In this document: positions 2,310 to 40,883 of the stretch, in pieces
Layout: the number at the start of each line of letters is the position of its first letter
How positions within the stretch are numbered: the stretch's first letter is position 1
Assembly (NCBI GenBank): GCA_005889275.1
Contig: VBFI01000044.1
Coordinates: 22,509-86,508, forward strand
Source of the DNA: Chloroflexota bacterium
GTDB lineage: Bacteria > Chloroflexota > Limnocylindria > P2-11E
Direction: 5' to 3'
DNA length: 64,000 nucleotides
Notes under the pieces: model-generated
Database searches by the model: none
Told to the model about the DNA's origin: nothing
What the model saw: the letters and a program-made list of their open reading frames with translations, nothing else
Program-made: the position numbers and the translations under genes

Positions 2310-3311
2310 CTATTCCTCCGGCGCGATCGCGGCGACGATCGCGAGGTCTTGCGCGCGAACCTTCGCGGGATCGAACTTGCGCAGGTTCGCGGTCATCCTC
2401 GTGAGCAGCTCGGCCATGGTCATCGGGGGTTTCTCGCCCTTTTTCGCGGGGATCCAGCGGACGGGGTTGCACCGAGCGACCACCACCTGGCGAAGGTATG
2501 GGCTCTTCATCCCGCGTTCCTGGAGCGTCTTCACGTGCGCCGCGACGCGATCGTCGATGTCCATGAGCCGCACGGCCCACTGCTCGCGCTGGCGGAGCGC
2601 GGCGGGGAGAGCCGTCTCGAGGAACCGGTCGACGCGGCGGAGCATCGAGTTGTAGGCCGACCCCGCGAAGCGATCGCGCTTCTCGTACGCGCACCCGAGC
2701 GTGAGGAACGCCGGAGATTCGAAGCTCGTCGCGTGCTCCGATTCCTTCGAGCGCGGCTGCTCCTTGGCGAGCGATCGCGCCATGCGGATCACCTCGAGCG
2801 AGCGATCGCGCAGGTTGTGCGCCTTCTCGGTGTTGAGGGCGAGGATGCGGTAGGCAAGCGCCACGTCGTCGGTGAGCAGCGCGGTGATGGCCCGTTGGCC
2901 GAGCTGCTTCGCCGCGGCGATGCGGTGCCGGCCGTTCGGTGACCAGAAGACATCCTTCCCGGGGATGGCGATGACCGGATCGAGGAAGAGGCCCGCGGCG
3001 CCGATCGCTGTCGCGAGGCGGTCCGCGTGGGTCCGCGAGAGATCGCGCTGGAACGGCGTCGCCTCGACGGCGCCGAGCGGCAGCGACGCGAGGATGAGCG
3101 GCGCGCCCGCGTACGGATCGCGATACGCGGCGAGGACCGCCCCGTTCGCCTTCGCGATCTTCGCGCCGAGGTCCCGAACGGCGGGGTCGTCGAGCGTGAG
3201 CGCCGACGCCCCGGCCTCCGGACCCCGCGCCTCGGCCGGCCCGCGCCGGCGCCGCGTGGTCTTCTTCGGAGCGCCCTTCTTCGCGCTTGCCGCGCTCTTG
3301 GCCGGGCTCAT
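2310..3311 (-). CDS. ParB/Srx-fold (ParB-like nuclease domain) protein with a basic N-terminal tail
   Basis: ATG 3311..3309, 333 aa. It starts MSPAKSAASAKKGAPKKTTRRRRG. The motif DPVIAIPGKDVFWSPNGRHRIAAAKQLGQRAITALL matches the ParB-N DGHHR...AA..LG box. The start overlaps the MFS stop (ATGA). The 5' half of the tracked 724-aa ORF is an Arg-rich artefact. Confidence 0.7.
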   Translation of the reverse strand: MSPAKSAASAKKGAPKKTTRRRRGPAEARGPEAGASALTLDDPAVRDLGAKIAKANGAVLAAYRDPYAGAPLILASLPLGAVEATPFQRDLSRTHADRLATAIGAAGLFLDPVIAIPGKDVFWSPNGRHRIAAAKQLGQRAITALLTDDVALAYRILALNTEKAHNLRDRSLEVIRMARSLAKEQPRSKESEHATSFESPAFLTLGCAYEKRDRFAGSAYNSMLRRVDRFLETALPAALRQREQWAVRLMDIDDRVAAHVKTLQERGMKSPYLRQVVVARCNPVRWIPAKKGEKPPMTMAELLTRMTANLRKFDPAKVRAQDLAIVAAIAPEE

Positions 3312-36384: not shown

Positions 36385-37329
36385 GTGGCCAGGTACGTCG
36401 CGCAAAGGCTCGCCGAGGCGGTCCCGGTCCTGCTGCTCGCGTCCGTCCTCGTCTTCTCGATCCTGCATCTGGTTCCCGGCGATCCGATCGACGCCATGAT
36501 CGGCGCCGCATCGTTCGGCGTGGGCGATCGGACCGCCCAGGAGCAGCTCGTCGCGCAGCTCCGCGAGCAGCTCGGCCTGAACGATCCGCTGCCGCTTCAG
36601 TACCTGCGCTGGCTGTGGAACGCGACGCATCTCGACCTCGGCGAGTCGTTCATCCGCCACCAGCCGGTGATGAAGCTCATCGGCGACCGGCTCCCGAGCA
36701 CGGTCGAGCTGGCGGGCGCGGCCCTCGTGCTGTCGGTGAGTCTCGGCGTCGTGCTCGGCCTCCTCGCCGCGGTGAAGCGCAACTCGCCGATCGATCGCCT
36801 GGTCATGCTCTTCTCGCTCGGCGGCGTCTCGATCCCGAGCTTCTTCTTCGCGATCCTGTTGATCCTGCTGTTCTCGGTCACGCTCGGCCTCGTTCCCGCG
36901 ACCGGCTCGGGCAGCCTCGACCGGCTCATCCTTCCGGCCCTCGTCCTCGGCTACGAGGGCACGGGCCTCATCGCGCGGCTCACGCGCGCGTCGCTCCTCG
37001 ACGTGCTCGGGCGCGAGTACGTGCGGACGGCGCACGCGAAGGGGCTCGCGCCGCGCAGCGTGCTTCTCGGTCACGCGATGCGCAACGCGCTCATCCCAGT
37101 GGTGACGATCGTCGGTCTCCAGCTCGGCCGCCTCCTCGCCGGCAGCGTGATCGTCGAGACGATCTTCGCGCGGCAGGGGATCGGGCAGCTCGCGATCGAC
37201 TCGATCATCGCGAAGGACTACCCGGTGGTACAGGGCGTGATCCTGCTCACCGCGACGACCTACGTGATCGCCAATCTTCTCGTCGACGTGTCGTATGGCT
37301 TCATCAACCCCAGGATCCGCGCCGCCTAG
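36385..37329 (+). CDS. dppB: ABC transporter permease (DppB/OppB-like)
   Basis: MARYVAQRLAEAVPVLLLASVLVFSILHLVPGDPIDAM...EYVRTAHAKGL...AMRNALIPVVT. GTG 36385 with GAGAGGGGA upstream. Confidence 0.85.
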   Translation: MARYVAQRLAEAVPVLLLASVLVFSILHLVPGDPIDAMIGAASFGVGDRTAQEQLVAQLREQLGLNDPLPLQYLRWLWNATHLDLGESFIRHQPVMKLIGDRLPSTVELAGAALVLSVSLGVVLGLLAAVKRNSPIDRLVMLFSLGGVSIPSFFFAILLILLFSVTLGLVPATGSGSLDRLILPALVLGYEGTGLIARLTRASLLDVLGREYVRTAHAKGLAPRSVLLGHAMRNALIPVVTIVGLQLGRLLAGSVIVETIFARQGIGQLAIDSIIAKDYPVVQGVILLTATTYVIANLLVDVSYGFINPRIRAA

Positions 37330-37346
37330 CGTCGGCCGTCCTGCCC

Positions 37347-38093
37347 GTGGCCATCGCCATCGACCCGTTCAAGCAGAGCCTCAAGGATTCGCTGCTCGCG
37401 CCCGGCACGCAGGGTCATCCGCTCGGCACGGACCAGTTCGGCCGCGACGTCTTGCTCCGGCTCATCGACGGCGGGCGCGCGTCGCTCTCGATCGGCTTCG
37501 CCGCCGTCGCGATCGCGATGGTGTCGGGAGGCCTCGTGGGGCTCGTCGCCGGGATGCGCGGCGGCTGGGTCGATCGGGCACTCATGCGGCTGGTCGACGT
37601 GGAGCTCGCGTTCCCCGGGATCCTCCTCGCGCTCATCATCGTGACCATCCTCGGCCCCGGCCTCGAGAAGGTCGCGATCGCCGTCGGGGTCGGCGGCATG
37701 CCGCGGTTCGCGCGCATCGTCCGCGGCTCGGTCCTCTCGACAAAGCACGAGCTGTTCATCGAGGCGGCGCGGAGCGTCGGGGCGAGCGAGCGGCGTGTCG
37801 CGTTTGCGCACGTCATGCCGCAGGTGCTCGGGCCGGTCATCACCATCGCGACGTTCGGACTCGCCACGGCGATCTTCTCGATCGCGGCGCTGTCGTTCCT
37901 CGGGCTGGGCGCGCAGCCCCCCGCCGCGGAGTGGGGCCTCATGCTGTCCGACGCGCGCCGCTACCTGCGGATCGCGTGGTGGCTCGCCGTGTTCCCTGGG
38001 ATCACCGTCACCTCGGTCGTGCTCGCCGCGAATCTCCTCGGCGACGCGGTACGCGACGCGCTGGATCCCCGTCTCTTCAGCAAGGCGGACTGA
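37347..38093 (+). CDS. dppC: ABC transporter permease (DppC/OppC-like), N-terminally truncated (TM1 absent)
   Basis: ...IAIDPFKQSLKDSLLAPGTQGHPLGTDQFGRDVL...EAARSVGASE. The first in-frame start after the dppB stop is GTG 37347. The upstream frame has no TM1. No ATPase genes follow. Confidence 0.6.
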   Translation: MAIAIDPFKQSLKDSLLAPGTQGHPLGTDQFGRDVLLRLIDGGRASLSIGFAAVAIAMVSGGLVGLVAGMRGGWVDRALMRLVDVELAFPGILLALIIVTILGPGLEKVAIAVGVGGMPRFARIVRGSVLSTKHELFIEAARSVGASERRVAFAHVMPQVLGPVITIATFGLATAIFSIAALSFLGLGAQPPAAEWGLMLSDARRYLRIAWWLAVFPGITVTSVVLAANLLGDAVRDALDPRLFSKAD

Positions 38094-38129
38094 GCTCCGC
38101 ACGGTCAGCGGAGCGCCGTCGGCTTTCGG

Positions 38130-38384
38130 CTACCGTCCGAGCGCGCGGCGGGCGGCCTGGGCCGAGCTCATGCGTTTGCTCTTACCCGGCGCGAGGGCCA
38201 CTCGGCGATGAACGTTGGACACCGCGTCACGCGGCAGATCGTGAATGAACGCGGCGGTGTTGTCCTTGAACAGCGGGATCTCGGGGACACGCTCCCAGCG
38301 CATGACCGCCGCGGCGAGATCCTTGGCCAGCGCCTTTCGGTTCTTGAACGTTCCTTCGGTGGCGTACACGTCGATCATCGGCAT
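38130..38384 (-). CDS. tautomerase-family protein (4-oxalocrotonate tautomerase-like, Pro1)
   Basis: MPMIDVYATEGTFKNRKALAKDLAAAVMRWERVPE. ATG 38384 makes Pro the catalytic residue 2. AGGAG lies 6 nt upstream. The tracked start at 38420 is too far upstream. Confidence 0.65.
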   Translation of the reverse strand: MPMIDVYATEGTFKNRKALAKDLAAAVMRWERVPEIPLFKDNTAAFIHDLPRDAVSNVHRRVALAPGKSKRMSSAQAARRALGR

Positions 38385-38404
38385 CGGCTGTCTCCTGGGT
38401 GGAA

Positions 38405-38457
38405 ATATGACGACCGTCATATCGTCGGCCGCACCTTAGCCTATGTCGATCGTCATA
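38405..38457. promoter_or_regulatory. two palindromic operator-like sites between the divergent tautomerase and TetR genes
   Basis: ATATGACG-ac-CGTCATAT (38405-38422; perfect 8-bp arms) and TATGtCGATCGtCATA (38442-38457). Both share a TATGACG/CGTCATA half-site. Confidence 0.5.
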
Positions 38458-38475
38458 GTCAAGGGGGTGCGCCGG

Positions 38476-39054
38476 ATGGGCAAGGAGAGCCGGGCCAGCA
38501 TGGTGCGGAGCGCCGCGTCGCTGATCCGTACCCGCGGCGTGAGCGCGACGTCGTTCTCGGACGTGCTGGCGGACAGTGGAGCGCCGCGCGGATCGATCTA
38601 CCACCACTTTCCGGATGGAAAGGCGCAGCTCGCCGCGGACGCGATCCGCTGGACGTCGGACCGGGTGCTCGCACACCAACGCGAGTGCCCCGCGACCACG
38701 GCGGCAGGGGTGCTGAACTGCTTCATCGACATGTGGCGGCAGGTCGTGGTGTCCTCGCGCGGCACCGCCGGATGCGTCGTGGCGGGCGTCGCGATCGACA
38801 CGGTCGCCGGCGACAAGGCCTTGATCGACGTCGTCCGCGCGACGTTCCGGTCCTGGGTCGACTTGCTGGCCAAGCAGCTCGCGGCCGTCGGTGTCCCACG
38901 TGAGCGAGCACGGGCCATCGCGGTCGCGACGGTGGCCGGCATGGAGGGCGCGCTCATCCTGTGCCGCGCCGAAGGTCGGAGCCGGCCGCTCGAAACCGTG
39001 GCTGCCGAGCTCATGCGTTTGCTCCCGCCCGACGCGAGGGCCACTCGGCGATGA
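38476..39054 (+). CDS. TetR/AcrR-family transcriptional regulator
   Basis: [44 protein letters not shown] is the TetR_N HTH. ATG 38476 with AAGGGGG upstream. The tracked start at 38443 overlaps the operator. Confidence 0.8.
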
Positions 39055-39233
39055 TCTCCGCGCTCGTCGGACCCGCGCTCCCCGATGGTCGCACGGCTCG
39101 GGGCGAGGGCGAGCCACGCGCGCGACGATCGACGGCGCGCGAATGGGCCTCCTGGATCCACGGGGCCGAGTTCGTCGGTGCAGACGTTCCTCGACCGGCA
39201 CGACCTCGGCGGGCCGGGTGGACAATCCCCCTC

Positions 39234-40883
39234 GTGAGCATCGCGACCCGCGTCGTCCGCGCCCCGCGAGGGGCGGCGCTGGAGTGCCGGGCCTGGCCGC
39301 AGGAGGCCGCGTTCCGCATGATCCAGAACAATCTCGACCCCGAGGTCGCCGAGAAACCGGATGAGCTCATCGTCTACGGCGGCACCGGGCGCGCGGCGCG
39401 CTCGTGGCAGGCGTTCGACCGGATCCTCGAGACGCTCCGGCGCCTGCGGAACGACGAGACGCTGCTCGTCCAGTCGGGAAAGCCCGTCGGCGTCTTCCGC
39501 ACGCACGAGTGGGCGCCGCGCGTGCTCATCGCGAACGCCCTCATCGTCCCGCGATGGGCGACATGGGACGAGTTCCGCCGTCTCGAGGACGCCGGTCTGA
39601 CGATGTACGGGCAGATGACCGCGGGGTCGTGGATCTACATCGGCACGCAAGGGATCCTCCAGGGCACCTACGAGACTTTCGCGGCGATCGCGCGGCGCCA
39701 TTTCGCGGGGACGCTCGCCGGCAAGCTCGCGCTCACGGCGGGACTCGGCGGGATGGGCGGCGCGCAGCCGATGGCGATCACCATGAACGAGGGCACCGCG
39801 CTCGTCGTCGAGGTCGATCCGCTGCGCGCGCGGCGCCGGCTCGCGCAGGGGTTCCTGGACGAGATCGTGACCTCGCTCGACGACGCGCTCGAACGTGCGG
39901 AGCGGTATCGGACCGAACGGCGAGCGCGTTCGGTCGGCCTCGTGGCGAACGCCGCGGACGTCCTTCCCGAGATCGTTCGCCGAGGCACGCGCATCGACGT
40001 GGTGACCGATCAGACGAGCGCGCACGATCCCCTCGACGGCTACGTCCCCGCGGGCGTCGCCGATCCCGCCGCGCTGCGCGAGCGCGACCCGGAAGAGTAC
40101 GTGCGACGCTCCCGTGCCTCGATCGCGCGTCACTGCGAGGCGATCGTCGCGCTCGCGCGCCGCGGTGCGGTCGCGGTCGATTACGGGAACAACCTCCGCG
40201 GTGAGGCGAAGGAGGCCGGTTTCGCCGACGCGTTCAGCTATCCCGGCTTCGTGCCCGAGTACATCCGGCCGCTCTTCGCCGAAGGCCGCGGGCCGTTCCG
40301 CTGGGTCGCGCTCTCCGGTGACCCCGAGGACATCCGCCGCACCGACCGGCTCGTGCTCGAGCTCTTTCCCGAAGACTTGACCCTGTCCCGGTGGATCCGC
40401 CTCGCCGGCGAGCGGGTCCCGTTTCAGGGACTCCCCGCGCGGGTCTGCTGGCTCGGATACGGCGAGCGCGCCGAGTTCGGCGAGCGGATCGACGAGCTCG
40501 TCGCGAGCGGCGAGCTCACGGCCCCGATCGTCATCGGACGCGACCATCTCGACTCCGGGTCGGTCGCGTCGCCATTCCGTGAGACCGAGAACATGCGCGA
40601 CGGGAGCGACGCGATCGCCGACTGGCCGATCCTGAACGCGCTCGTGAACACGGCGGCGGGCGCGACGTGGGTGTCGGTCCATCACGGCGGCGGCGTCGGG
40701 ATCGGCAACTCGATCCACGCGGGTATGGTCGCGGTCGCCGACGGCACGCCGCTCGGACGCGAAAAGCTCCGGCGCGTGCTCACGACCGATCCGGGCACCG
40801 GAGTCATGCGGCACGCCGACGCGGGGTATCCGGACGCGATCGACTTCGCGCGGAAGAACGGGATCGACCTGCCCAGCACCTAG
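39234..40883 (+). CDS. hutU: urocanate hydratase
   Basis: [32 protein letters not shown]...[12 protein letters not shown]...[17 protein letters not shown]...GNNLR...[12 protein letters not shown]...VMRHADAGY is near-complete HutU homology. GTG 39234, 549 aa. Confidence 0.9.

Follow-up and report, generated by a model that had tools for sequence, protein, structure and literature searches.

Two conserved palindromes, predicted operators of a TetR-family regulator, beside a truncated tautomerase gene in a soil Chloroflexi MAG

Two palindromes share one intergenic region

The locus described here lies in a 64-kb stretch of DNA (the window; G+C = 70%) and raises two questions: whether the 91-bp gap at 38385-38475, which separates two short gene models, a tautomerase open reading frame (ORF) on the minus strand and a tetR gene on the plus strand, holds the sites at which the TetR-family protein would control both genes, and whether the tautomerase gene is still whole. 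An earlier note, made from the sequence alone, had described a perfect palindrome with 8-bp arms and a second palindrome in this divergent region, and direct reading of the sequence found both:

38405-38422, strandless: operator 1, ATATGACG-AC-CGTCATAT, a perfect palindrome with 8-bp arms (weight-matrix score 27.8 bits).
38441-38458, strandless: operator 2, CTATGTCG-AT-CGTCATAG, a palindrome with one T/T mismatch pair (weight-matrix score 30.7 bits).

Operator 1 starts 21 nt from the tautomerase ATG in the window and has the core 16-mer TATGACGACCGTCATA (38406-38421), while the core 16-mer of operator 2, TATGTCGATCGTCATA (38442-38457; that is, TATGtCGATCGtCATA, TATGTCG-AT-CGTCATA), contains a single non-complementary pair, T/T, as marked in the earlier note. 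The half-site that the two palindromes had been said to share is indeed common to them, as both match TATGNCG-NN-CGNCATA in the same 7-2-7 layout. The distance of 37 bp given earlier is that from 38405 to 38442; measured like for like, however, the 16-mers lie 36 bp apart, start-to-start and centre-to-centre. When both strands of the 64-kb window were searched for the pattern TATGNCGNNCGNCATA with one mismatch at most, the two matches were operators 1 and 2, against an expectation of 0.03, and two or more matches were found in 0 of 100 shuffles. A weight matrix trained on 84 orthologous sites, from which the window was excluded, gave the third-ranked site in the window only 8.4 bits, and the maximum over 20 shuffles was 13.1. 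A chance origin of the palindromes is ruled out by these pattern and weight-matrix statistics.

A TetR-family gene and its relatives

38476-39054, plus strand: TetR-family regulator, intact, 192 aa, starting MGKESRAS (assigned by Pfam domains and full-length alignment to orthologues).

The assignment of the right-hand gene to the TetR family, also made in the earlier note, is borne out by both of its domains, an N-terminal HTH (PF00440, TetR_N; E = 1.5e-8, residues 12-54) and a C-terminal domain of the all-helical ligand-binding and dimerisation type (PF21993, TetR_C_13_2, LmrA/YxaF-like; E = 1.2e-22, residues 80-177). The closest solved structure is Bacillus subtilis YxaF (1sgm, E = 2e-17), and the protein matched both 1sgm and 3qbm over its full length.

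A search with the TetR protein against one genome per species gave 80 loci. Divergent pairs of a TetR gene and a full-length tautomerase gene were found at L001 to L040 (excepting L008, where the contig ends), L069, L074, L076 and L079, and two metagenome contigs fetched via the tautomerase also carried divergent pairs. At the 45 divergent loci, the tautomerase is 140-146 aa long and the intergenic region measures 75-134 bp (91 bp in the window); hosts of the cassette are Chloroflexota, Dormibacterota, Actinomycetota, Mesorhizobium sp. AR07, a Saccharibacteria-labelled contig, a Thermoplasmata MAG and a Deinococcus plasmid. In a MAFFT alignment of the 45 intergenic regions the palindromes formed the information peaks (consensus tTATGAtGgtCGTCATAg and cTATGncGatCGTCATAGTCAAG), CGTCATAGTCAAG of operator 2 was nearly invariant, and the sequence between and outside the palindromes was mostly unconserved. 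Conservation of the palindromes upstream of orthologous TetR/tautomerase pairs had been named in the earlier note as a check on its reading, and both are conserved in about 40 of the 45 loci. Operator 1 lies 14-28 nt from the tautomerase start codon at these loci (commonest about 20), and the spacing between the operators ranges from 26 to 42 bp (commonest 36-37), a variation that leaves fixed helical phasing or an obligatory cooperativity between the sites unsupported. The alignment shows a predicted consensus operator, a 16-18 bp imperfect palindrome of the form (C/T)TATG-A-Y-G-NN-CGTCATA-G, and, by the same measure, its two copies are shown to be the most conserved non-coding bases of the cassette. 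Synteny of the flanks (Dpp-like permeases, urocanase) was shared with none of the related loci, with homology limited to 38211-39054; as they have no flanking gene in common with the window, the pair behaves as a self-contained cassette in varying contexts.

The same loci bear on the gene starts. The ORF-track starts at 38420 (minus strand) and 38443 (plus strand), said earlier to overlap the operators, do exist and do lie inside the palindromes. The preference for the shorter gene models proved correct: every one of the 45 tautomerase orthologues begins with (M/V)PMID (alignment A2 shows no variation at P2), and a start codon occurs at the position aligned to 38476 in 42 of the 45 loci. An upstream in-frame start of the TetR gene is absent from 22 of the 45 loci, and in 18 the ATG within operator 2 is in frame, near the one-third expected by chance. 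The longer gene models (38420, 38443) were rejected, since conservation is lacking both in the upstream frame and at the upstream start.

Around the cassette, two ABC-transporter permease genes (BPD_transp_1, Dpp/Opp-like; 36385-38093) lie on one side and the urocanate hydratase gene hutU (about 39230-40883; Urocanase_N, Urocanase and Urocanase_C domains) on the other; the permease and hutU neighbours occur in none of the 80+ related loci. An inverted repeat at 38082-38126 (AAGGCGGACTGAGCTCCGC / GCGGAGCGCCGTCGGCTTT; arms of 19 nt that are 79% complementary and separated by 7 nt) runs across the stop codon of the Dpp-like permease gene, which ends at 38093, and may be the terminator hairpin of the transporter operon.

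The tautomerase gene is cut short in the window

38212-38384, minus strand: 5' remnant of a tautomerase-superfamily gene, codons 1-58, starting MPMIDVY, with the first beta-alpha-beta unit only.
38130-38211, minus strand: last 26 codons of the 84-aa ORF, an unrelated tail that reads antisense through the duplicated TetR 3' end and on beyond it.
38161-38211, plus strand: 51-nt direct repeat, a copy (47/51 identical) of the last 16 codons and stop of tetR (repeat family D1).

A protein-collection search with the product of the 84-aa ORF (38130-38384, minus strand) returned 3270 relatives. The best 120 of these were nearly all 139-147 aa long, and the few shorter ones checked were fragments or frameshifted. 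Full-length relatives matched PF01361 at residues 77-122, in the half absent from the window, with 21-27.5 bits against a cut-off of 22. The AlphaFold model of a full-length relative (P0040; pLDDT 76.8) contains two beta-alpha-beta units, and in Foldseek it matched Cg10062, cis-CaaD and fused 4-OT trimers (probability 1.0, E about 1e-6, TM 0.6-0.76). On the evidence of this model, the family of the window gene is the Pro1 tautomerase superfamily, of the double-length kind (cis-CaaD/Cg10062, fused 4-OT). The earlier note had the target as 4-OT-like, which does not fit a two-unit family with its best model matches in Cg10062, cis-CaaD and fused 4-OT; the canonical short 4-OT (about 62 aa, hexamer; native unit of 60-75 aa) was rejected on the length of the relatives and on their two-unit structural matches. 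Full-length relatives share Pro1 and two beta-alpha-beta units per chain with cis-CaaD, Cg10062 and fused 4-OT (PDB 2flz, 3n4g, 6vvr) but differ from them in sequence (15-21% identity) and in matching PF01361 weakly and in the second unit only, and the window copy differs further in lacking the second unit. An overview of the tautomerase superfamily is available (PMC5818174). One member of the family, on the Deinococcus plasmid, is labelled ‘hypothetical protein’ in RefSeq.

In the window itself, proline directly follows the initiator methionine (ATG at 38384), and none of the residues invariant in the family's first unit, Pro1 included, is lost from the 58 kept codons. Relatives match the first 69% of the 84-aa ORF only (75-88% identity among the best relatives listed), and tblastn with a full-length relative as query covered only residues 1-59, so that the complete two-unit chain of about 140 aa is absent from the window and residues 1-58/59 only are present. 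In DNA comparisons with more than 25 orthologous loci, homology of the window starts within 38211-38213, and the 26-codon tail was found in no relative compared. Pfam assigned no family to the 84-aa ORF or to its 58-aa homologous part, and the NCBIfam 4-OT model scored the window product at 13.8 bits against a cut-off of 103. The last 51 nt of tetR (39004-39054) are the source of the 51-nt repeat; the two copies lie 843 bp apart, and their similarity is limited to those 51 nt (alignment A1). The ORF tail is thus the antisense of the repeat followed by unrelated sequence. These alignments show the tautomerase gene of the window as a truncated remnant, cut after codon 58 at the duplicate of the tetR 3' end, and its 84-aa fragment is probably non-functional. 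Of the target put forward in the earlier note, the proline at position 2 (MPMIDVY) stands, whereas the intact gene does not, since homology stops at residue 58-59 (38211-38213). A truncation shared with the short relatives P0021 and P0094 was rejected, as their tails are different frameshift products.

The arrangement suggests a truncation by tandem duplication of 38212-39054 (843 bp) followed by deletion. The duplication is proposed because the unit 38212-39054 has, immediately before it, a copy of its final 51 nt; the deletion would then have removed the greater part of the first copy, and with it the 3' part of the tautomerase gene. Since the four positions at which the repeat copies differ all fall within 9 nt, they tell little about age.

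The truncation might instead be an artefact of MAG assembly, with an intact 140-aa gene and a fully functional circuit in the real genome. The window does come from a soil Chloroflexi MAG contig, a single record (a ‘hypothetical protein’ of a soil Chloroflexi MAG) carries the exact 84-aa product, and frameshifted or short versions of the tautomerase gene, such as P0021 and P0094, are common in metagenome data. We nonetheless consider an artefact unlikely, as a simple collapse would not leave a 51-nt copy that differs from its source at 4 positions, the left flank of that copy is unique sequence that runs on into the permease gene, and the end of homology falls in the same 3 bases for more than 25 loci; chimeric joins, moreover, are usually found at identical repeats, whereas this repeat has diverged. 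A truncated remnant in the genome itself is therefore the reading that we retain.

Several of the related loci are of interest in their own right. One MAG (CAVSSX01, Acidimicrobiaceae) holds two cassette copies, L024 and L028; at L028 (2491-2904, 2959) the tautomerase match is in three pieces, probably through frameshifts, and operator 1 has a 1-nt deletion, and judged by these matches L028 is a second example of a decaying cassette copy. L001 (2625-2906), the locus with the TetR most similar to that of the window (82% identity), has a tautomerase match that runs only to residue 94 of 146, and this may be another truncated or frameshifted copy. In the actinobacterial L023 (2895-2982), the stretch from operator 2 to the TetR start includes a third palindrome, GTATGCTGGACGTCATAG (20.4 bits), after which the CATAGTC context occurs again; this looks like a local duplication of operator 2. 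Cassettes at 57-59% TetR identity occur at L032 (Thermoplasmata archaeon MAG JBAQJJ010000024), which retains operator 1 only, and at L035 (labelled Candidatus Saccharibacteria, a CPR bacterium), and would reflect either horizontal transfer or mis-binned contigs. The 268-kb plasmid of Deinococcus sp. KNUC1210 (L083; NZ_CP092192, 2239-3415) carries a complete cassette with the palindromes CTATGACGAACGTCATAC and ATATGACGAACGTCAGAG, TCAAGG after ATATGACGAACGTCAGAG, a 144-aa tautomerase relative and an adjoining MATE efflux gene.

The motif follows the TetR clade

Over 509 kb of fetched loci, matrix matches of at least 14 bits lay almost only directly upstream of TetR genes, the exceptions being same-strand operons and two outlying matches. 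TetRs at 41-48% identity that have no tautomerase neighbour (Actinomadura, Spirillospora, Variovorax, Undibacterium) keep the motif; at the two loci where the divergent neighbour was checked, it is a PaaI-like thioesterase (Actinomadura, L044) or a lipoprotein-like gene (Variovorax, L080). Where tautomerase and TetR genes are co-oriented in an operon (L073, L075 and L077), the only site is the one ahead of the tautomerase gene, at the operon front. The comparison of loci shows the predicted operator motif following the TetR clade, not the tautomerase. At L044 the same operator would serve a different target, because the divergent gene is a thioesterase and there is no tautomerase. That the adjacent TetR is the binding protein can be argued because the motif stays with TetR when neighbours or orientation change, and we infer that each site is bound by a TetR dimer.

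Among the TetRs of 45-48% identity without a tautomerase neighbour (L041-L067; Actinomadura, Spirillospora, Planobispora; about 2912-2993), many Actinomadura and Spirillospora loci have two or three palindromes upstream of TetR, spaced 28 and 32 bp, and the Planobispora loci L041 and L046 have no matrix match of at least 14 bits. At L044 the thioesterase gene (2409-2888, minus strand) is followed by an enoyl-CoA-hydratase-like reading frame.

The association of TetR and palindromes is positional only, and a different regulator, whether global or linked to the tautomerase, could in principle bind the palindromes while the adjacent TetR is unrelated to them. Such a regulator is improbable: it would have to account for a motif that stays with the TetR clade beside the thioesterase of L044 and the lipoprotein-like gene of L080, and for a site that shifts to the operon front when tautomerase and TetR are co-oriented, and a common hypothetical factor would be needed in at least six phyla; the 64-kb window contains no further strong sites. 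The TetR protein encoded next to the sites thus remains by far the most likely binding protein.

Promoters and the predicted circuit

38457-38462, minus strand: putative tautomerase -35, TTGACT (reverse complement AGTCAA); TTGACT/TTGACA in 40/45 loci, TTGAC in 41/45.
38433-38438, minus strand: putative tautomerase -10, TAAGGT (TANNNT), 18 nt from the -35; nAnnnT in 41/45 loci, TAnnnT in 16/45.
38391-38396, minus strand: tautomerase Shine-Dalgarno sequence, AGGAGA, 6 nt before the ATG at 38384; CTCC/TCCT is conserved there in the alignment.
38454-38459, plus strand: candidate tetR -10, CATAGT, in the right arm of operator 2; CATAGT in 38/45 loci (low confidence).
38461-38467, plus strand: purine-rich, Shine-Dalgarno-like sequence of tetR, AAGGGGG, 8 nt before the ATG; AAGGAGG, AAGAGGA and AAGGGGG are common in orthologues.

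In the alignment, GTCAAG is conserved directly after operator 2, and between the operators conservation is highest at an A and a T, spaced four bases from each other in AGCATGCAC to the left of operator 2; these two bases correspond to -11 and -7 of the putative tautomerase promoter. A sigma-70 promoter scanner gave no hit in the window, because TAAGGT matches TATAAT at 3 of 6 positions; in L015 and in L027, TTGACT-18-CATACT was its sole hit in 500 bp. With this layout, the core of operator 2 would fill the 18-nt spacer between the tautomerase -35 and -10, and operator 1 would lie at about +5 to +20 of the tautomerase transcript, just upstream of its Shine-Dalgarno sequence. The tetR promoter is less clear. 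Conservation of CATAGT does not discriminate, because the same bases belong to operator 2, and a -10 there is doubtful because it would leave a leader of only about 10 nt and clip the Shine-Dalgarno-like sequence; no tetR -35 was found in this region. A tetR promoter symmetrical to that of the tautomerase (-35 left of operator 1, -10 between the sites) was rejected, as no conserved hexamers were seen by eye in the alignment; CATAGT is the one -10-like hexamer for tetR that the alignment conserves.

Our overall reading, to which we give a probability of about 0.8, is that the 91-bp region controls a two-gene cassette, in which TetR would act on two operators at the tautomerase and tetR promoters, with a target that is truncated here. 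The proposal that the TetR protein represses its own gene and a divergent target agrees with the architecture and the conserved sites, although not with an intact tautomerase as the target in this genome. Occupation of operator 2 would shut both divergent promoters (the tautomerase spacer and the likely tetR -10, CATAGT), and one bound dimer would suffice to block them because CATAGT overlaps the tautomerase -35 on the opposite strand. Occupation of operator 1 would impose a further block, confined to the enzyme gene. Family knowledge suggests that a small molecule, plausibly the enzyme substrate or a related compound, would bind the LmrA/YxaF-like C-terminal domain and release the repressor. 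In this genome, the most likely outcome would be autoregulation of tetR and regulated expression of the probably non-functional 84-aa fragment.

Could that fragment be a natural ‘de-fusion’, by which a double-length tautomerase has returned to a short, self-assembling, TetR-regulated form? Canonical 4-OT forms hexamers built from a single beta-alpha-beta unit of about 60 residues, and the 84-aa remnant keeps Pro1, a ribosome-binding site, the putative promoter and both operators. We regard a de-fusion as highly doubtful: conserved positions are kept in the 58 codons though the adjacent 51-nt repeat has 4 differences, but the 26-residue tail would be unnatural, and with both points in view a working short form is still very hard to credit. 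A probably non-functional fragment under TetR control is the outcome that we prefer.

Only 16 of 86 sites are perfect palindromes. Across these 86 sites the arms do not co-vary: positions 5 (A/C/T) and 6 (C/T) of the left arm vary, and the right arm is constant, CGTCATA. As the sites for these arm statistics were selected with a palindrome pattern, the conservation of their outer bases is partly circular, a problem from which the intergenic alignment is free. That the palindromes act as nucleic-acid structure (a leader hairpin, attenuator, riboswitch or DNA cruciform) is scarcely credible, for although the computed fold of the putative tautomerase leader is modestly more stable than those of shuffled sequences (-13.8 kcal/mol, z = -2.05), a hairpin with a 7-bp stem and a loop of only 2 nt is sterically unfavourable, compensatory changes are absent (of the 86 sites, 55 are complementary at pair 5/12 and 41 at pair 6/11, with the left arm alone varying), Rfam gave no match at E ≤1, and the alignment conserves sequence, not pairing, so that a hairpin function is unlikely and recognition by a protein fits.

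Comparison with known regulators

The Tn10 TetR system has tetO1 and tetO2 between tetR and tetA. The cassette resembles it in a TetR-family repressor gene divergent from its target, in two similar palindromes within a short intergenic region and in operators that overlap the divergent promoters; autoregulation, control of the target and release by a small ligand would also be common to the two, the last of these being predicted here. It differs in that the operator sequence of the window is unrelated, the target is a soluble enzyme and not an efflux pump, the C-terminal domain is LmrA/YxaF-like, and the operator spacing is variable (26-42 bp); moreover, the cassette is known from sequence comparison. 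In B. subtilis, YxaF and LmrA recognise palindromic boxes in the promoters of the operons that encode them, and flavonoids act as the releasing ligands. Among solved structures, that of YxaF (1sgm) is nearest to the window TetR, with the same C-terminal family (PF21993), but the sequence relation is distant, the operator sequence is another one, and YxaF and LmrA are co-transcribed with their targets (yxaGH, lmrAB), not divergent from them, and have no tautomerase.

In operator geometry, the two-base centre of the cassette site ATGAYG-NN-CGTCAT is shared with Thermus thermophilus SbtR (TTHA0167) and TTHB023, for which palindromes of 14-16 bp have been defined experimentally (SbtR, TGACYrnnyRGTCA; TTHB023, a 16-mer; PMC7022988). 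The half-sites differ, being GACC/GGTC in those regulators and GACG/CGTC with TA-rich outer bases here; the regulons of SbtR and TTHB023 are fatty-acid genes, and neither protein is among the PDB or family matches of the window TetR. In the literature searched, whose coverage was limited, incidental matches only were found, and no description of the TetR/tautomerase pair or of the CGTCATA half-site. Judged by its sequence layout, the arrangement is textbook TetR architecture, with a broken regulated gene as the local twist.

Implications for the TetR clade and its tautomerase

The cassette leaves the general understanding of TetR regulation unchanged. Since the window gene beside the repressor is a truncated remnant, it should be left out of any tally of working tautomerases. 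For an uncharacterised TetR clade spread over soil Chloroflexota, Dormibacterota, Actinomycetota, some Proteobacteria and a Deinococcus plasmid, the comparison provides a predicted operator defined by sequence, (C/T)TATGAYG-NN-CGTCATAG, and a likely arrangement of the promoter. This clade is linked to an unnamed double-length tautomerase family, ‘hypothetical’ in RefSeq, and the link could aid annotation of the cassette. The cassette could also guide the search for the substrate of the enzyme via the ligand of the repressor, or give an orthogonal repressor/operator pair.
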